The notes below the pieces were generated by a model that saw only the letters and a program-made list of their open reading frames with translations, ran no database searches and was not told the DNA's origin. From a virus (taxonomy: Duplodnaviria > Heunggongvirae > Uroviricota > Caudoviricetes): DNA of 38,438 nucleotides. The position numbers and the translations under genes are program-made. The DNA lies in IMG/VR virus record IMGVR_UViG_2648501437_000025. One strand, given 5' to 3'. Position 1 is the stretch's first letter; every line of letters starts with the position of its first letter. Shown here piece after piece: positions 18,732 through 29,949 of this stretch.

Positions 18732-19268
18732 TTAAGCATAATCGAACGCTTCTCTCATAGGTGAATACAAAATGAACTCTGCAACACGCAACCACTGATC
18801 AACACGACGTCGGCATGTAATCAACGCCCACTCTGGGTACTGTTCGTTTAATAACTCGGCCATCCTTCTCTTACTCATCCCTCGCCCCACATAACGCTGA
18901 CTCAGGACATTTAGTAGTCCTGGATGATCCGCCAGAACTTCACCTATAACACTATCAATTTTTAGTGCCTCTGCATCAGTGCAGTGAGTTAACCAGCTTT
19001 TTTGCTTTCCTTCGATCATCTCACGCAAAAATGCTTCCAACTCTGGTTTATCAATTCCCGCTTTTTTCAATCTGCGCAGGGCTTCATTGATGGCTGTTTT
19101 TGTCATTTTTTGGGATGCCAGCAACTGGTTAAACATATTCCCTGACCTGCCGCCGCCAATATACGACCAGCGCCCCCACATACGTAGTTTTCCCTGAATC
19201 CAGACACTTTCCAGCGTGGTGAGACGAAGGTGTTCTCCGCTTTTTCCTGTATTCGTTGGGTAAATCAT
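18732..19268 (-). CDS. Late-gene antitermination protein Q-like
   Basis: Last gene of the nin block, directly upstream of the promoter/terminator/tRNA/lysis arrangement; ATG 19268 with AGGAGGG RBS (track ORF extends to 19388); family assigned by position and size, not a confirmed motif. Confidence 0.6.
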   Translation of the reverse strand: MIYPTNTGKSGEHLRLTTLESVWIQGKLRMWGRWSYIGGGRSGNMFNQLLASQKMTKTAINEALRRLKKAGIDKPELEAFLREMIEGKQKSWLTHCTDAEALKIDSVIGEVLADHPGLLNVLSQRYVGRGMSKRRMAELLNEQYPEWALITCRRRVDQWLRVAEFILYSPMREAFDYA

Positions 19269-19555
19269 AAATATCCCTCCTTTCTCCAGATTTCTTGTGT
19301 GCGAAAAACACCTTCTGCATGCATCAGGCGTAATTCTTCTTTGGTGTAATCGCTGGTTTTTACCCGCCCGTCGATTAAATCGTGGCACGAGCTACAGGCA
19401 ATTGCTGCCTGCATATCGTGTGGCTTTATCGCTGTTCCGCACGTACCCGCCAGTCGGTAATGAGCCAGTACAGACGTTTCAGGATTGTGATTGCAGTAGC
19501 CTGGGATTCTGACCTGGCACATCTGGCCCTGCGCCGCTTTACGTAAATTCACCAT
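19265..19555 (-). CDS. ybcO: YbcO-like (DUF1364) nin-region protein
   Basis: 96-aa protein with Cys pattern CQVRIPGYCNHNPETSVLAHYRL...CSSCHDLIDGR, closely resembling E. coli prophage YbcO as I remember it. Confidence 0.7.
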   Translation of the reverse strand: MVNLRKAAQGQMCQVRIPGYCNHNPETSVLAHYRLAGTCGTAIKPHDMQAAIACSSCHDLIDGRVKTSDYTKEELRLMHAEGVFRTQEIWRKEGYL

Positions 19556-20661: not shown

Positions 20662-21156
20662 TTAGTTTTGCTGTTCTATTTTAAGCTTGATAGTTTCATA
20701 CAAAACAATAGTTGCGCCTGTTTTACATAATTCCCGACTGTCATACGCACGAGACCAATAACACAACCAATTTTCAAGCTCTTCTCGTGTATAAATTTTA
20801 CAGGCCAGCCCCTCAGCCATCTCCACAACTTCATCGCCTGGTGCGGTTAATTCGTATCCATTTAACAATAAAAAAACCGCACCAGCCATCATTGCTGTGC
20901 GCTTGTTTGCATTGGCAAATGGATGATTCTGAATCAGACTTTCAATCAATACCGATGCCAGTACAAACATGTCGTTGGTTTGCTCATACCATCGAACCAT
21001 ACTGGGACGAGACTGAGAAGAACTTAAATTATCAACACTCAGCACACCAACAGGTTCATCTGGTGTTTGAAGCTCAATTAAAAGGCGATTAATTTCAGTA
21101 AGATCATCAACCGAAAGGTAGTGCACTCCTTCAACAATCTCAGCCATAGAGCACAA
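20662..21156 (-). CDS. doc: Doc-family toxin (Fic/Doc fold)
   Basis: Contains HPFANANKRTAMMAG, a variant of the Fic/Doc HxFx(D/N)(A/G)NKR active-site motif; preceded by a small partner ORF. Confidence 0.8.
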   Translation of the reverse strand: MCSMAEIVEGVHYLSVDDLTEINRLLIELQTPDEPVGVLSVDNLSSSQSRPSMVRWYEQTNDMFVLASVLIESLIQNHPFANANKRTAMMAGAVFLLLNGYELTAPGDEVVEMAEGLACKIYTREELENWLCYWSRAYDSRELCKTGATIVLYETIKLKIEQQN

Positions 21157-21949: not shown

Positions 21950-22852
21950 CTAAAACTCTATTTTTTGTGCCGGACGTGAGTTTAAAATCCAGCACTCCTG
22001 ATGTGTATGATGTATAGTTAGTAGATTGTCAAACTGAGATTTCTTAGCGTCAAATTCCATTTTATTTTTAAAGTCAACATTAAAATCTCCTGTTTCAATA
22101 GAGGCAAGAGCTTTGAGTCTATTGCATTCAGCATGCATATCAATTATATCGCTAAAACCTTCGCTTTTAATTCTTTTATTAACATAGTTCGTATAAATCC
22201 CTGCATGTTTATAAGAATCCATCACAGTGTATAATCCATCACCATCAATATCTGTAGGAGATGACATCCATTTAAAAACATGTAGAAGAAAAATATTTGC
22301 TGACCAAGGAAACACCACCCCATTAGCAAATGTTTCTGAAGTACCAGAACTAAGACTTTCATTAAGATTAGTCGCACCGATTAAGATCACATCGGTTTCA
22401 AACTCGTTCCGTTTACCAGCACCTACAAAATTAAAGGTCCCGGCATAGCATTGCCCAAGATAAACAACAGCATTTTTAAGATTTGGGGCTTCCTTCAAAG
22501 CCTTCAGTAATTGGCTTGGTGGGATAGGTTTCTGTGCATCAAGTCCATGAGGGCCACCATGACCAGTTACAAACATAACTATGTTATCATATGTATTATC
22601 ATTTAAGTCATTAAAAAAAACTGCTGATGGTTTTGACTTAAAAGGATATCTAGAAGCGAGTGCAAAAGCACCATCGTAATTCATTGAAGGGCTATCTATA
22701 TATATCGAAATATCATCTGGATTGATACCTGCCTTTTCGAGGCACATCACACCAAAGACTAAATCGACAACATGACGAAATTCCACTGCAGCTTTCGAAC
22801 AAGGCAAAAACATCACCCACCTTGTGCGTTCAGACCTAAGACTCATATACAT
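21950..22852 (-). CDS. Clan CD (legumain/caspase-like) cysteine peptidase-like protein
   Basis: Motifs NIVMFVTGHGGPHG and NAVVYLGQCYAG, 37 residues apart, follow the hydrophobic strand + His-Gly ... hydrophobic strand + Cys layout of legumain/caspase catalytic dyads; AT-rich gene; alternative start at 22813 with AAGGTGG RBS. Confidence 0.55.
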   Translation of the reverse strand: MYMSLRSERTRWVMFLPCSKAAVEFRHVVDLVFGVMCLEKAGINPDDISIYIDSPSMNYDGAFALASRYPFKSKPSAVFFNDLNDNTYDNIVMFVTGHGGPHGLDAQKPIPPSQLLKALKEAPNLKNAVVYLGQCYAGTFNFVGAGKRNEFETDVILIGATNLNESLSSGTSETFANGVVFPWSANIFLLHVFKWMSSPTDIDGDGLYTVMDSYKHAGIYTNYVNKRIKSEGFSDIIDMHAECNRLKALASIETGDFNVDFKNKMEFDAKKSQFDNLLTIHHTHQECWILNSRPAQKIEF

Positions 22853-22877: not shown

Positions 22878-23174
22878 TTAAAGATTAAAATTATATCCAG
22901 AGAACACTGTATTACTGAGTGATGATGGTCTTGGTAAATCACTAAAATAAAACACTTCATCAATACTCAAGTGTTCGGTAATTTTTGTGGGCATAATCTG
23001 CCCTCGCTCATTCATGCCAAAGATATCATTACCGGTTTTTAGAAAAAATGTTATTTCCACGGTAATCCTGTAACTATTGGATTTGAAAAGCATCCATTGC
23101 CCAAGATTCACACACTCTTTTACTGCATCAGAGGTATCAGGCAACTCAGAAGATTGTAACCCCGTGAATTTCAT
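22878..23174 (-). CDS. Hypothetical 98-aa protein, first gene of the AT-rich island
   Basis: ORF with AAGGA RBS 8 nt upstream of the ATG at 23174; 25 nt upstream of the peptidase-like gene; no recognisable motif. Confidence 0.5.
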   Translation of the reverse strand: MKFTGLQSSELPDTSDAVKECVNLGQWMLFKSNSYRITVEITFFLKTGNDIFGMNERGQIMPTKITEHLSIDEVFYFSDLPRPSSLSNTVFSGYNFNL

Positions 23175-23302: not shown

Positions 23303-23386
23303 TCAACCCCAGCGGCAAATCGAATACACCACCAGCGCCACCGCCATCGCAATTCCTACCGTAGTGAATGCCTCAGGCCAGGTCAT
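23303..23386 (-). CDS. 27-aa hydrophobic micro-ORF, translationally coupled
   Basis: MTWPEAFTTVGIAMAVALVVYSICRWG; ATG overlaps the stop of the upstream gene (ATGA) and is preceded by AGGAGGTGA at 5-nt spacing. Confidence 0.4.
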   Translation of the reverse strand: MTWPEAFTTVGIAMAVALVVYSICRWG

Positions 23387-23778
23387 TGATTCACCTCCTG
23401 CTCAATATTTTTCAGATCATTTTCCGCATACAGTATTGCTGTCCTGGCTGCTCGTAACCGGGCTTTGGCATTTTTCTCTTCACGTTCAAGTTTTGCCACA
23501 GCTTCACGAAGAGCATCCCGCTTTGCATAGAGTGATTTAATCTCAGTCACGATGTTTTCACCGTTTCTCGCACGGTCAAGAACAAGCTCGAACGGATCTA
23601 AAGCCAATCCACACCGTTTGCAGGTAATCGTACGATTCACTTCTGAAATTGTTGTACGGATATGCTGACAGCATTTTTGCTCGACACTTTTTTCGTCGGT
23701 TATCACAACGTTGAGGAGTCCTTCCTCCTCTGATTTTGGCTGCACCAGGGTGATAACATTGTCGCCTTCATTTTTCAT
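23383..23778 (-). CDS. Zinc-ribbon + coiled-coil protein (paralog A)
   Basis: CCQH...CKRCG...DPF followed by a charged coiled-coil (EREEKNAKARLRAA); shares this architecture with the ORF at 25529..25927. Confidence 0.5.
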   Translation of the reverse strand: MKNEGDNVITLVQPKSEEEGLLNVVITDEKSVEQKCCQHIRTTISEVNRTITCKRCGLALDPFELVLDRARNGENIVTEIKSLYAKRDALREAVAKLEREEKNAKARLRAARTAILYAENDLKNIEQEVNQ

Positions 23779-24727: not shown

Positions 24728-25087
24728 TCAGCCTCCTTTGATGCCTGTGTTTACAACCAGGCAGGCTTCCTTGAGTACCCAGTCAATAGCGTCTTTCCAT
24801 GCTCCGGTTTCAACTGGCGGATTCTCACGCCGTACCTGTTCATAAAAGCGCACAGCTTTAACCAGCCCTTCTGATGACACCGGGGCTGGCGGGGCCGTGA
24901 ATAACGCCTGAATTTCATAGTTCGGTCTGTCGTTACAATCTTCTTTTGTCGGGGCATATTTCCAGTCACCAAACCACGACTTACCCTGAGAGTCCGTAAC
25001 GCCTTTTTTCACGTAGCGATACCGCCATGCAACTGGTTTTGCCTGCCCTGCCGTTTCATGCCCTTCCTGATAATTAATCTCACTCAT
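24728..25087 (-). CDS. Hypothetical nin-region protein (119 aa)
   Basis: ORF with ATGA overlap to the upstream small ORF. Confidence 0.45.
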   Translation of the reverse strand: MSEINYQEGHETAGQAKPVAWRYRYVKKGVTDSQGKSWFGDWKYAPTKEDCNDRPNYEIQALFTAPPAPVSSEGLVKAVRFYEQVRRENPPVETGAWKDAIDWVLKEACLVVNTGIKGG

Positions 25088-25260
25088 TCATCGCCCCACT
25101 CATCACAATATGCTTCGACCGGAGTTTTTCCTGCTTCATAATCATCACGCCATGCTTCAGCATCAGCGGCACTTCCACCGCGTAACTCTGCATAATCCAT
25201 TAACAGTTCATGCCATTCTTCAAAACTGGCGTTATATTTAGTTGAACCAAAATCAGCCAT
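25084..25260 (-). CDS. Small acidic protein (58 aa)
   Basis: MADFGSTKYNASFEEWHELLMDYAELRGGSAADAEAWRDDYEAGKTPVEAYCDEWGDE from my translation; stop overlaps the next start; below the track cutoff. Confidence 0.4.
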   Translation of the reverse strand: MADFGSTKYNASFEEWHELLMDYAELRGGSAADAEAWRDDYEAGKTPVEAYCDEWGDE

Positions 25261-25435
25261 TTTGCTCTTCCTCTTCGTCTTTTATTTCGTGATATGAGTA
25301 ATTGCAGTAGTTAAAGAAAATTTCTTTTGCTTCGTCCTTTATTTCATCTGGTGTCGCATCATCATCCACTTCGAATACATCTTCAAAATCTCCACCAGCT
25401 ATTCCCGTTTCAATAATTATTTTGAACTTTCGCAT
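25253..25435 (-). CDS. Small highly acidic protein (60 aa)
   Basis: Asp/Glu-rich (FEVDDDATPDEIKDEAKE...KDEEEEQNG); a GC hairpin sits between a GGAGG element and its ATG. Confidence 0.45.
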   Translation of the reverse strand: MRKFKIIIETGIAGGDFEDVFEVDDDATPDEIKDEAKEIFFNYCNYSYHEIKDEEEEQNG

Positions 25436-25528
25436 TTCATTACCGCCCTTTCGGGCGGCCTCCTGATGTTCTGAGGGTGCAGAAATCCCTCCGGTTAAGG
25501 ATTAAATTTTTAACACTACTAAATTTAA

Positions 25529-25927
25529 TTATTCAGTTCTGGATTTTGTCGCTCTGCGTATCCGCGCTTTCGCGTTACGCTCAATCTGAATTAACTTTTC
25601 TATATTTTTCCGCCTTTCCTGTTCCTCCTGGCGCAATAGCCTTACATCATCTGCCAGTCTGGTTTCTCTTTTCGCCACTGAGAGCATCCAGTCAAACGGC
25701 TCCACAACTGCACCGCAGTTTTTACAGCGGACCTGACGCTCTTTTTCGTCAACCCGGACAGAAGCGTGATGGCAGTATGGTCTTTCCGATGGCTCATAAA
25801 GAAAATTAACCTGATTACGTGGGTCATCCTCTTTTACCGGAAATAAAACAATATTACTTAACTCATCTTCTGGATTTATTTCCACGTCACTCTCCTTTGA
25901 TGCGAATGCCAGCGACGCGTGGCACAT
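25529..25927 (-). CDS. Zinc-ribbon + coiled-coil protein (paralog B)
   Basis: YCHH...CKNCG...EPF then coiled-coil ERNAKARIRRA; start placed at ATG 25927 (track start 25966 is TTG). Confidence 0.5.
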   Translation of the reverse strand: MCHASLAFASKESDVEINPEDELSNIVLFPVKEDDPRNQVNFLYEPSERPYCHHASVRVDEKERQVRCKNCGAVVEPFDWMLSVAKRETRLADDVRLLRQEEQERRKNIEKLIQIERNAKARIRRATKSRTE

Positions 25928-26309
25928 TAACTTCCACAATGCGCACAGTTGGTTTGTACATCTCAATTGCTGTCAGCCAGTCAGCGCCAGTCATGCGCTT
26001 TTCTGCATCGCCATTAGTCCACTTAACCGGTACACCAATAGCCTTCATCGCGATTTCTATTTCCCCGGCAATGGCGCTTTTTCCACAACCAGTAAAACCA
26101 GAAACAACGACAAGAACTTCGCCTTTGGCTGGTTTTATTTCCCGTGCTTCCAGTTCTGCAATGCGCTTCTCTGCGGCTTCCAGCTCAACACGCAGCTTCC
26201 CTACCGTTAGCGCAATTTCCTCGTTCTCCTGATCGCGGCGTTTTATGTATTGCTGGTTTCTTTCCAGTTCATCCAGTAATGCCAGCACAACCTGAGGTGT
26301 GACCTTCAT
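25887..26309 (-). CDS. Hypothetical protein with P-loop-like GFTGCGKS segment
   Basis: Coiled-coil N-terminus, then VVVSGFTGCGKSAIAG; start uncertain (ATG 26309, or TTG 26426 per the track). Confidence 0.4.
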   Translation of the reverse strand: MKVTPQVVLALLDELERNQQYIKRRDQENEEIALTVGKLRVELEAAEKRIAELEAREIKPAKGEVLVVVSGFTGCGKSAIAGEIEIAMKAIGVPVKWTNGDAEKRMTGADWLTAIEMYKPTVRIVEVNVPRVAGIRIKGE

Positions 26310-26382
26310 ACGAAATGCCAGCAATTTTTGTGGTGTGGCTGCTATTTTTATTGCTTCTGCCGCCCCACGCAGTGCCTGATAG

Positions 26383-27126
26383 TCAATCTTGCTCACTGGT
26401 TGCCTCCTGGCAAAGTTGGGCGACAATATCGCGATATTTATTCAGCTCCCGCAGCGCGGCACATACTCGCTCCCATTTCCGGATATCACTTTTCGCCCGA
26501 CGCAGTTCGCGGTTTGCCTGTCGCAGCGATGGCAGAACCAGATTATCCACTCGCTTCTCAAGCGGCTGCACAATGCCCGCCACAGTTTCTGTTTTAATAT
26601 CTTCCTGTGTTGCAGCTTCCTGTACTGGTAACGCAACACATGCAGGCTGAGGAAAGGCTTTACCATCAGTTTCCGCTACCGATGCCGCTTTCGGCTCTGC
26701 TGGTAAATTACCGCCCGGCATGCAGTAACGAAATTTACCGTTCTGATTAACACGAATCAGACGACCTTTGCTGATTGCCATTGCCAGCGTTGAAGCCACT
26801 TTGCGTGATGTGGTGCCGAAAAACGTAGCCAGTTCATCCGCCGTTTGTGGGCCACGTTGTTCAATCGTCGCGGTTAAATCGCACTCTGAGATTTTCGCTA
26901 CTGTTGCCATGGTGGTTTCTTCCGGCAGCTCTGCCGGCGCTGGCTGTTCCTGCTGAACGTTGTTATCAGCCACGCGCCAGGTGTATACGCTTTTATCAAC
27001 GAAGCCAGCCTTTTTCAGTTCCCACAGCTCGTTCAGCACTTCTTCTCGACTGATATCAAGTCGCGTAGCCAGTTCTACCGACGTGGCTTTTCCCATCGCT
27101 TTCAGTGCGTCAAAAACGGTCTCCAT
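26383..27126 (-). CDS. Winged-helix DNA-binding protein (two WH-like segments)
   Basis: Repeated pattern of the [30 protein letters not shown] type; ATG 27126 with GGGAGGAAA RBS. Confidence 0.5.
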
Positions 27127-27148
27127 TAAAATTTCCTCCCGGTAAAAA

Positions 27149-27895
27149 TTACTTCTCAATACCTGGCTGACCAACATTCGGGCGCCAGCTCTCCCAGTTA
27201 AAATTCACCCAGCGCCCGCCGTTCATGGTCATGCGATCCATAATCCGCTCGCCGAGCAATGTTTTCATGGCCTCATAGTTCAGGTTTGTCAGCATCCCCA
27301 CGCTGCGCATCGACGCTGTCCGGCGATCAACAATCTGGTGCAGTACCACCTGCTCGTTTTTCGTCTCGCGCTGAATACCAATTTCATCAAGAACCAGCAG
27401 ATCAACTTCGCACAGTTCCCGCAAAAATTTTTCGCCTGACTGCCCGTCGTCATAGCTGGCGTGCAGGGCGCTCATAACATCAGCCACGGTAACCACAATC
27501 ACTGTCTGGCCATCTTTCAGCAGGCGATTCCCGATAGCCGCCGCCAGATGGTTTTTTCCGGTACCAGGTTTTCCGCTGAACGCGAAATTTGTGCATCCGG
27601 TAACCAGTTCGTCAGCGATAGATTTCGCCTGACTCAACGCGTATCGCTGGCCGTCGTTCTGCACCTGGTAATTCGCAAACGAGCATTTGCGGTGCAACGG
27701 CTGTATGCCGGAGCGATTCAGGATTTTTTCCACCCGCAACTGACGATTCTGACGGTTGATCTCCTCACAACGTTTCTGGCCTTCTGCAAGTTGCCACTCG
27801 CGCCACTCCGCCACCGTCCTGAATGGCGCGGTTACATGTGGCGGGGCCAGTCGGCGGATGCGTTCCAGAACGCCGCCTGTCGCAATATTTTTCAT
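27149..27895 (-). CDS. ydaV: DnaC-like replicative helicase loader (IstB-like AAA+ ATPase)
   Basis: Walker [16 protein letters not shown] and Walker [10 protein letters not shown]; position after the initiator-like gene. Confidence 0.9.
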
Positions 27896-27901
27896 GGTTC
27901 G

Positions 27902-28759
27902 TTACCCCCTGAAGCCTGGCGGGATCGCACTGTCCGGCAACGAGACGGTGTTAACCTGTCTGAGCAACGTCTCAGGCCGAACACCTTTCGGCGCGAACAA
28001 GCCCTGGTATTCATTGGCGATGCTATGTCGAATCACCTGCTCAGGGGTAAAACCCTGCTGGCGGAATTTTTCCAGCTCCCGTATCGCCCCGTTAGCGCCC
28101 TGCTCCGTTCGAATCGGTTTACGCAATGCATGGCGAAATTCAACCCACTCACGCCAAAGCGAGACAGAAATCCAGTTCGGCAAAGCAATATCCAGAGGGT
28201 CAAACTTTTTGACACCTCGATTCCCCCGGGGGGGATTTAGGGGGGGATCTGTTTTTAGATCTTTATCTGTATCTTTATTAGTTGCCTTTGTGTTGACATC
28301 ATGTTCAAACACCACTTCAACATCTGTTTGAACACCTGTTAAATTTCTCTCTTGTTTTGTTTGAACATCTGCTTCCTTTCTGCTTCTTCTGGCCTGAACA
28401 GATGCTTTTCCTGCGGCTGATTTTTTGGTTAATTTTTCCCTGACTGATGCCAGATCTTCCTCAATCCGAAGATGCACCCATTCCTCGCCGTTATCGCAAA
28501 AAAACTCCCGCAAGGATGGTTCAACATCAGCCCATCGCTCGTTAGTCAGACGGGCAATTTTTGCCAGCCTGTTTTTGGGTATTGGCTTTCCTGTTTGCCA
28601 GTAATTGAACATCAGCAACAAATACGCACCGTGCTCCTCTGCTGACAAATGCATGGTGTCAGCCAGGTAATCAGCTATGTACAGTTGCATGTATGGTAAT
28701 GCGGCCATAATTGCCCCGTATGATGCTGCCCGGTTGCTTAGAATAAGCACAAACAGCAT
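27902..28759 (-). CDS. ydaU: Replication initiation-associated protein (YdaU-like, DUF1376)
   Basis: N-terminal YIADYLADTMHLSAEEHGAYLLLMFNYWQTG pattern; 285 aa; located upstream of the DnaC-like gene. Confidence 0.7.
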   Translation of the reverse strand: MLFVLILSNRAASYGAIMAALPYMQLYIADYLADTMHLSAEEHGAYLLLMFNYWQTGKPIPKNRLAKIARLTNERWADVEPSLREFFCDNGEEWVHLRIEEDLASVREKLTKKSAAGKASVQARRSRKEADVQTKQERNLTGVQTDVEVVFEHDVNTKATNKDTDKDLKTDPPLNPPRGNRGVKKFDPLDIALPNWISVSLWREWVEFRHALRKPIRTEQGANGAIRELEKFRQQGFTPEQVIRHSIANEYQGLFAPKGVRPETLLRQVNTVSLPDSAIPPGFRG

Positions 28760-28771
28760 GAAAACTTTTGC

Positions 28772-29194
28772 TTAATGAACAATGACAGAATCGTCGGAAG
28801 ACCCGCCACCGCTGAAATATGCTTTACGGTAAACGGCCTGGACTGCATCATCATGCGCATCAATTGCCGTACTCAACGCTTCCTGCGCCGCCAGTAATGC
28901 ACGGCGTTCCAGGGTATCGAAGATGCAGAGTCGGTGACGCAGCTCGCGCGGAAGAATTGCCAGAACCGCAGGGATCAGTTTCTGAATTTTTTCCCTTTGC
29001 GCTTTCGTTTCACCTTTCAACCAACGGTGATAGATATTCTGCTGATTGTTCCAGTCCTTGCCTGGTACCAGGGGCAATTCGCCGCCCCCCTGGCGCAGAT
29101 ATTCTTCAGTAATTGCGTTAGCAACCCACGCCTGCCCTTTTTCGGCTGCTAGGGCTAACAACACTGATTCGATGTGCTCATGCCTGATTTTCAT
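28772..29194 (-). CDS. ydaT: YdaT-like protein
   Basis: 140-aa protein MKIRHEHIESVLLALAAEKGQAWVANAITEEY... closely resembles Rac YdaT from memory; start overlaps the Cro-like stop (ATGA). Confidence 0.7.
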   Translation of the reverse strand: MKIRHEHIESVLLALAAEKGQAWVANAITEEYLRQGGGELPLVPGKDWNNQQNIYHRWLKGETKAQREKIQKLIPAVLAILPRELRHRLCIFDTLERRALLAAQEALSTAIDAHDDAVQAVYRKAYFSGGGSSDDSVIVH

Positions 29195-29529: not shown

Positions 29530-29949
29530 ATGGAAAAAGAAAACGAAAAAATTGCCGCTAGTAGGCTCAATGACAAAATTGCAATGCGTCTTAAAGAGCG
29601 CAGGCAGAAGCTTGGTTTATCTCAAGGAAAACTTGCTGAAATCTGCGGATGGACGCAATCGCGTATAGGTAACTATGAGGCGGGCAGCAGAAATGTTGGA
29701 GTGCATGATGCTGTCGTCCTGGGAAAGGCGCTGGGCATATCTCCTCCTGAGCTCCTCTTTGGGGAAAAAGACTCTTCTGAATTGTGGTTAAATGAATCCC
29801 AACGAAAACTTCTTGAGTTGTTTAACCAGCTACCGGGCTCAGAACAACAACGAATGATTGAGCTATTTGAAGTCCGGCTAAAAGAAATCGACGAGTATGT
29901 AGAAAAATATTTGAGGGGCAGGCTTAAAGATACCCCCCCACCGGAGTAA
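29530..29949 (+). CDS. Prophage repressor (CI-like XRE HTH, no peptidase domain)
   Basis: HTH segment LGLSQGKLAEICGWTQSRIGNYEAG; divergent from the Cro-like gene; followed by its own terminator. Confidence 0.7.
   Translation: MEKENEKIAASRLNDKIAMRLKERRQKLGLSQGKLAEICGWTQSRIGNYEAGSRNVGVHDAVVLGKALGISPPELLFGEKDSSELWLNESQRKLLELFNQLPGSEQQRMIELFEVRLKEIDEYVEKYLRGRLKDTPPPE

Follow-up and report, generated by a model that had tools for sequence, protein, structure and literature searches.

Two small acidic proteins behind a portable Shine-Dalgarno-hairpin leader in a lambda-like Escherichia coli prophage, candidate inhibitors from catalogued but uncharacterised families

The window analysed here is a stretch of 38,438 nucleotides (IMG/VR virus record IMGVR_UViG_2648501437_000025) whose source element is a lambda-like E. 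coli prophage with Rac-type immunity. Two reading frames of 60 and 58 codons, hereafter p60 and p58, belong to its rightward early operon and lie in a part of the window in which all genes are on the minus strand (Table 1). A sequence-only reading had described them as adjacent, strongly acidic proteins with overlapping stop and start codons, and both are indeed present: the p60 stop and the p58 start share eight nucleotides, ATGGCTGA, and the p58 stop overlaps the start of p119 as ATGA. Their assignment to a nin operon holds for position, since the genes sit between the replication genes and a Q-like gene as in the lambda nin region, but no nin-family genes flank them. E. coli P13-6 is annotated with an identical order, a "DUF7167 family protein" followed by a "hypothetical protein".

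The accessory block that holds the pair is bracketed by two zinc-ribbon and coiled-coil paralogues, both assigned to phrog_1621. Further along, the stretch from the DUF551 block to the Q-like gene holds three cargo-like open reading frames, namely a 300-aa protein with a weak match to peptidase C13 (caspase-like), a 98-aa protein without a match and a Fic/DOC protein; none of the three has a match in PADLOC, and they could represent prophage-borne toxin or defence cargo.

Table 1. Features of the p60-p58 locus and its surroundings, listed in minus-strand order with positions in the window
Feature	Position	Strand	Description
cI-like HTH gene	29530-29949	plus	
YdaT-family gene	28772-29194	minus	
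DUF1376 replication protein	27902-28759	minus	
DnaC/IstB-like loader	27149-27895	minus	
DUF1627	26383-27177	minus	
Ead/Ea22-like protein	25887-26426	minus	
Zinc-ribbon protein (145-aa ORF)	25529-25966	minus	followed by a 93-nt intergenic region, then p60
AT-rich element	25508-25528	minus	CTGAATAATTAAATTYAG, after the stop of the 145-aa ORF
Leader	25436-25507	minus	about 72 nt; UCCU, hairpin 1, AGGAGG, GAAA-loop hairpin 2
Hairpin 1	25473-25491	minus	GAGGG-AUUUCUGCA-CCCUC, within the leader
GGAGG Shine-Dalgarno (SD)-like element	25459-25463	minus	23 nt 5' of the p60 ATG
Hairpin 2	25442-25459	minus	(G)CCGCCC-GAAA-GGGCGG(U); core 25443-25458, between SD and ATG
p60	25253-25435	minus	60-aa acidic ORF; DUF7167 (PF23768) / phrog_1997
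p60 stop/p58 start overlap	25253-25260	minus	8 nt
p58	25084-25260	minus	58-aa acidic ORF; unnamed family phrog_519, without Pfam
p119	24728-25087	minus	119-aa ORF 3' of p58; phrog_660, function not described
71-aa ORF (p71)			
DUF4014			
DUF551			
Second zinc-ribbon paralogue	23383-23778	minus	
98-aa ORF	22878-23174	minus	
Peptidase-C13-like ORF	21950-22852	minus	300 aa
Fic/DOC ORF	20662-21156	minus	
DUF1367			
Q-like antiterminator	18732-19388		

Both p60 and p58 are real genes under strong purifying selection, because their dN/dS ratios (NG86) are 0.07 and 0.08, respectively, and because homologues occur in distant phages and plasmids. The ratios derive from 84 related loci (IMG/VR and genomes), which contain 32 distinct p60 and 36 distinct p58 alleles, with a mean dN of 0.016 and a mean dS of 0.20-0.22. 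Among 5426 complete E. coli genomes, the 424-nt segment comprising the leader and both genes is matched in 2557, and in 1745 of these 5426 at a coverage of at least 80%; the pair picked out by the sequence-only reading is therefore well conserved in related prophages. A scan of genome contigs returned two loci only. The pair is intact in 83 of the 84 loci of the E. coli module, a linkage that reflects recent common descent of the module and not an obligate partnership; direct binding of p60 to p58 is unlikely, given their combined net charge of -25.

Altered DUF7167 alleles are found in many E. coli genomes (P0072, P0077, P0123, P0125 and P0141). Some are 87-aa forms that start at an upstream ATG and read through the hairpin, the usual ATG being lost in one, and others are frameshifted or truncated, such as P0125 on 107 contigs, a pattern pointing to alternative starts or to decaying cryptic prophages. 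The frequency of truncated and frameshifted alleles and the high mosaicism of the region are what one would expect if the two genes had no function and rode along, neutrally or selfishly, in a cassette prone to recombination, but that explanation is hardly credible given a dN/dS of about 0.07 and relatives in unrelated phages that, at 39-55% identity, have kept their length, fold elements and charge.

The acidity of the two proteins is extreme. p60 contains 19 Asp and Glu against 6 Lys and Arg residues (net charge -13, pI 4.06), and p58 contains 16 against 4 (net charge -12, pI 4.05). With acidic fractions of 0.32 and 0.28, they rank first and second among the 201 ORFs with a length of 50 aa or more in the six frames of the window, the next standing at 0.19. 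Five distant DUF7167 relatives carry net charges of -10 to -14, and 35 representatives of the p58 family have a median of -10 (range -15 to +1). Acidity is thus a trait of both families, including relatives in phages of Gram-positive bacteria.

Residues 2-53 of p60 align to the full PF23768 model (positions 1-60) at 52.5 bits (E 5.4e-14; Pfam gathering cut-off 24.4), and the protein also matches phrog_1997 at E 1.1e-29. By these profile matches p60 is a member of DUF7167 / PHROG 1997, and near-identical relatives bear the NCBI label "DUF7167 family protein". Along its whole length (residues 1-58), p58 matches phrog_519 at E 8.5e-23, covering only positions 76-137 of the 143-position profile, whose members include Vi01_151c, phiKDA1 gp27, R721_90 and the IncI2 protein WP_000753050. 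The motif common to p58 and PHROG 519 is F-E-E-W ... G-G-S-A-A-D-x-D-A-W-R-x-D-Y-D-A-G-K-T-P-x-E-A-W-x-D-E-W-G, and the family alignment displays a conserved aromatic and hydrophobic skeleton (F13, W16, L20, A24, W37, Y41, G44, P47, W/F/Y51 and W/Y/F55) set amid acidic residues. No Pfam or NCBIfam family was found for p58, and Pfam scans of 36 diverse relatives revealed no common family. A p58 profile search of 1.84 billion representative proteins recovered just 75 clusters, nearly all of them stand-alone proteins of 50-65 aa. Both proteins accordingly belong to catalogued, uncharacterised families, which E. coli prophages very often carry.

Monomeric AlphaFold2 (AF2) models predict a beta-beta-alpha-beta arrangement with a short acidic C-terminal helix for p60 (pLDDT 78) and a three-helix bundle for p58 (pLDDT 75). 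Fold matches of the p60 model are generic, with RAM/ACT/PurS modules at the top. Foldseek comparison with BFVD gave none at E ≤ 0.001, and its matches are all uncharacterised small phage proteins; PDB sequence searches with single sequences and a 36-member profile yielded nothing below E 0.6. The predicted p60 fold type is that of several small phage inhibitors, the comparison set comprising T7 Gp2 (an inhibitor of host RNA polymerase), T4 Dmd (an antitoxin) and the anti-CRISPR proteins AcrIIC3, AcrIC9 and AcrIE2, but it is too common for a function to be assigned from it. Homology of p60 to T7 Gp2 was considered and rejected, the hhalign profile comparison being non-significant (E 0.28) with a Gp2 query identical to PDB 2WNM. 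Gp2 residues R56 and R58, which we take to be the arginines that contact the beta-prime jaw of RNA polymerase, have no counterpart in p60.

The minus-strand sequence 5' of p60 reads ...AAUCCUUAACCGGAGGGAUUUCUGCACCCUCAGAACAUCAGGAGG-CCGCCC-GAAA-GGGCGG-UAAUGAA-AUG. A GC hairpin between GGAGG and the ATG had been proposed as a translational control element of p60, and this anatomy is confirmed, with the ATG 7 nt past the stem, but the arrangement is not specific to p60. The leader is conserved behind differing upstream genes, and identity collapses immediately 5' of it. Its 36 distinct variants have a mean column identity of 96%, and its mean pairwise difference of 0.086 compares with 0.158 at four-fold sites of p60 and p58 and 0.52 just upstream. 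Within the GGAGG element, G45-G48 are invariant and the final G is replaced by A in some variants. The AT-rich element that precedes the leader overlaps the stops of several different upstream genes; it recurs 5' of the leader, lengthening the conserved junction, and forms a perfect inverted repeat in some variants (L040).

The 87-nt stretch containing the leader folds at -25.4 kcal/mol, with a z-score against shuffled sequences of -1.67, and hairpins 1 and 2 are both found in the minimum free energy (MFE) and centroid structures. Across variants, 98.3% of cells are paired in hairpin 1, in which one pair is changed on both sides, and 93.7% in hairpin 2, which has one double change from G-C to A-U and eight variants unpaired at that same pair. 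Several G-U changes and further unpaired variants occur as well. The covariation score is attained by 83 of 500 shuffles and so lacks significance, the variants being 96% identical.

Several other roles for this region were considered and set aside. Function as a terminator or promoter is unsupported, because a search for intrinsic terminators came up empty and promoter-like sites occur at chance level, and an Rfam scan returned no families. A coding role, as in the 87-aa forms (e.g. P0072), was rejected in view of an in-frame TAA 66 nt 5' of the ATG (25499-25501) and the non-synonymous nature of the hairpin changes. A nut-like boxA/boxB site, suggested by a GAAA-loop hairpin after CCUUAAC, was likewise set aside, its position being atypical and an N-like gene for comparison being absent.

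A gap of 23 nt between GGAGG and AUG is too long for a normal SD element, but it shortens to 7 nt when the 16-nt hairpin is excluded. In T4 genes 38 and 25, a hairpin reduces the SD gap from 22 to 5 nt and from 27 to 11 nt, respectively, and enhances initiation (PMC3014915). The p60 leader resembles these split ribosome-binding sites in its distant, strong SD element, its stable spacer hairpin and a residual distance of 7 nt, within the 5-11 nt range of the T4 cases. It differs from them in being a mobile cassette placed before several unrelated genes of lambdoid prophages, and in that its SD element can also pair with an upstream UCCU. By this analogy, the arrangement looks more like a translation-enabling split ribosome-binding site than a repressing structure; an alternative, repressing structure may nevertheless form, since the predicted MFE fold contains the pairing of the SD element with UCCU.

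The same 72-75 nt leader precedes DUF4014 in E. coli O157:H7 DEC4E, and in strain AR_0006 it lies before a 135-aa ORF and an HNH gene. Among 120 SD-hairpin loci in IMG/VR, the gene that follows encodes DUF7167 in about 60, DUF4014 in about 21, a 123-187-aa family in about 20-30 and a 158-196-aa family in 5. The leader is therefore found before members of four or more unrelated ORF families, and the start codon follows the final G-C pair at a distance of 6-9 nt in every case. To judge from this recurrence, the leader is a portable cassette that marks a module junction in lambdoid prophages. (Examples elsewhere are L093, 2501-2574, L094, 2501-2573, and the IMG/VR loci L095-L213.) Compared with the O157 order of leader, DUF4014 and DUF551, the window carries p60-p58-p119-p71 between leader and DUF4014, which by gene order is what the exchange of an accessory cassette would produce.

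Beyond the E. coli module the two families part company. Phage records with a p58 relative number 219; some 195 belong to Ackermannviridae, whose copies are 55-60% identical. The Vi01 homologue (Vi01_151c) lies after the major capsid gene, and in the KP34-like podophage phiKDA1 it is gp27. They also occur on 561 plasmids, 516 of which are conjugative, mostly of the IncI2 type. The IncI2 homologue, 86% identical to p58, lies behind an unrelated DUF1187 gene with the identical ATGGCTGA overlap, and its operon continues into SPFH, NfeD and type IV secretion genes. On a large MOBH plasmid of Klebsiella, the homologue is part of a long array of small, co-directional, uncharacterised genes and has an 8-nt start/stop overlap at its 5' end, by coordinates alone. 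Because the DUF1187-p58 junction of IncI2 has the same overlap, the TGA is built into p58 codons 2-3; the overlap is intrinsic to the Met-Ala-Asp start of p58. DUF1187 was considered as a relative of DUF7167 and proved unrelated on comparison. As side observations, P0148 (127 aa) is a DUF1187-p58 fusion protein, and the overlap lies at 1793-1800 in L005 and at 7001-7008 in L214.

DUF7167 relatives, with identities of 39-68%, are found in Klebsiella, Serratia, Enterococcus and Pseudomonas phages. The gene follows replication genes and precedes DUF551 in a Klebsiella temperate phage, lies immediately 5' of an exonuclease gene in Guernseyvirinae and immediately 3' of one in Enterococcus Herelleviridae, occupies the int-proximal early region of a Serratia prophage five genes downstream of an Rv2179c-like exonuclease, and in phages of about 150 kb belongs to a Ter-gene cluster. 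No p58 relative lies beside DUF7167 in any of these five contexts. On this evidence, the DUF7167 and phrog_519 families are unrelated, independently mobile modules. In Escherichia phage phiWec190 (L217), DUF7167 lies between TerC, TelA, vWA-TerF-like and TerD genes; in Pseudomonas phage PsgM04F (L007), just one "tellurite resistance protein" is annotated near the homologue. Sequences 93-95% identical to this E. coli prophage region in the record of Actinobacillus phage vB_Apl-pPE4 and in a Collinsella sp. MAG (L010) likely represent host mis-assignment or contamination.

The sequence-only reading had gone on to propose the two proteins as DNA mimics or anti-defence factors. Three general features fit an inhibitory or anti-defence role: acidity is conserved, p58 is common to temperate and virulent phages and to conjugative plasmids, and the genes occupy mosaic early accessory regions. 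The specific attribution has no support, as no match ties either protein to restriction or DNA mimicry and the fold matches are generic. Neither Ocr, ArdA nor any other named anti-restriction family was matched in Pfam or NCBIfam at E ≤ 0.1, or in the PDB by sequence; PADLOC, a defence-system library, and NCBIfam gave no p60 or p58 match, and the EVADES supplements searched mention none of PF23768, DUF7167 and the WP accessions. No known anti-defence gene adjoins the homologues in the roughly dozen contexts examined. Source names of the relatives are all "hypothetical" or "DUF7167", and literature searches returned no functional study of DUF7167, the WP accessions or either PHROG.

In its narrow form, that p60 and p58 block type I restriction-modification enzymes as DNA mimics in the manner of Ocr and ArdA, the proposal is quite improbable. 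The charge composition of p60 and p58, with its extreme excess of Asp and Glu, is comparable to that of Ocr, whose 116 residues include 34 acidic and 6 basic side chains (PMC3439906). As for Ocr and ArdA, a strong negative charge is conserved across the family, expression is from an early region, and carriage extends to phages and conjugative plasmids, a distribution that p58 has in common with ArdA. The IncI2 homologue is approximately the 24th ORF from mobC/oriT, on the presumed leading side (the direction of transfer being inferred), and the leading regions of plasmids are reported as sites where anti-defence genes cluster (PMC11541004). Neither the Vi01 nor the IncI2 position is nonetheless a typical early or leading anti-defence position. 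Unlike Ocr and ArdA, which are elongated dimers imitating bent B-DNA, p60 and p58 have no sequence similarity to them, are half their size or less, and are predicted to form compact globular units and not elongated arrays; a type I enzyme grips a stretch of DNA much longer than any monomer of 58-60 aa. Moreover, lambda-like phages already carry other restriction-alleviation functions.

A further alternative is that p60 and p58 modulate the element's own replication, recombination or lysis-lysogeny decision through a basic, phage-encoded partner, as do proteins of the lambda exo-xis region. The two genes directly follow the replication genes, amid Ead/Ea22-like and basic zinc-ribbon proteins, and Ea22 has been reported to favour lysogeny (PMC10834534); the proximity of DUF7167 to exonuclease genes in Guernseyvirinae, Enterococcus phages and the Serratia prophage points the same way. 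Yet no single neighbour is conserved across contexts, and the elements that carry p58 (Ackermannviridae, IncI2 and MOBH plasmids) replicate and recombine by quite dissimilar machinery, which argues for a target from the shared host. A role confined to the element's own functions is thus rather unlikely.

Our best guess, held tentatively and a little short of an even chance, is by analogy that p60 and p58 are acidic, stoichiometric inhibitors of a host or competitor nucleic-acid-binding protein. The points that make such inhibition the most likely reading are circumstantial, namely a conserved extreme charge, small and stable single-domain folds and a mosaic early accessory position, and we infer the mode of action from them. 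Phages and conjugative plasmids that share a host range both carry p58, which further suggests that the target is supplied by the host. Each protein would be a small, stably folded acidic molecule that blocks a positively charged nucleic-acid-binding surface, acting stoichiometrically through charge mimicry like other small phage inhibitors. Its target would belong to the host or a rival element, and might be a defence nuclease or sensor or a housekeeping DNA- or RNA-binding protein. Translation of p60 would start from the portable leader, its GC hairpin with the GAAA loop shrinking the gap to about 7 nt, and p58 and then p119 would be translated by coupling. It is a bolder and unlikely proposition that the p58 family and, separately, DUF7167 are new broad-range counter-defence proteins, with the leader a mobile cassette for swapping such genes; the p58 family would then neutralise, by acidic mimicry, nucleic-acid-targeting immunity that is common in Enterobacterales.

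In kind, p60 and p58 are an ordinary small phage accessory pair, for which the spread of p58 across elements and the leader raise interest slightly. As inhibitors of DNA-binding or defence proteins of the host they are reasonable candidates, plausible but unproven. If either protein is an inhibitor, the small acidic proteins of counter-defence or host takeover would gain a new family. The p58 family would then matter most, because it is carried by about one third of complete E. coli genomes, by Vi01-like therapeutic phages and by the IncI2 plasmids that spread mcr-1; a common target, if there is one, would have a bearing on the transfer of plasmids as well as on phage therapy. If it acts as proposed, the portable SD-hairpin leader would be a natural translation-initiation module reused by unrelated genes.
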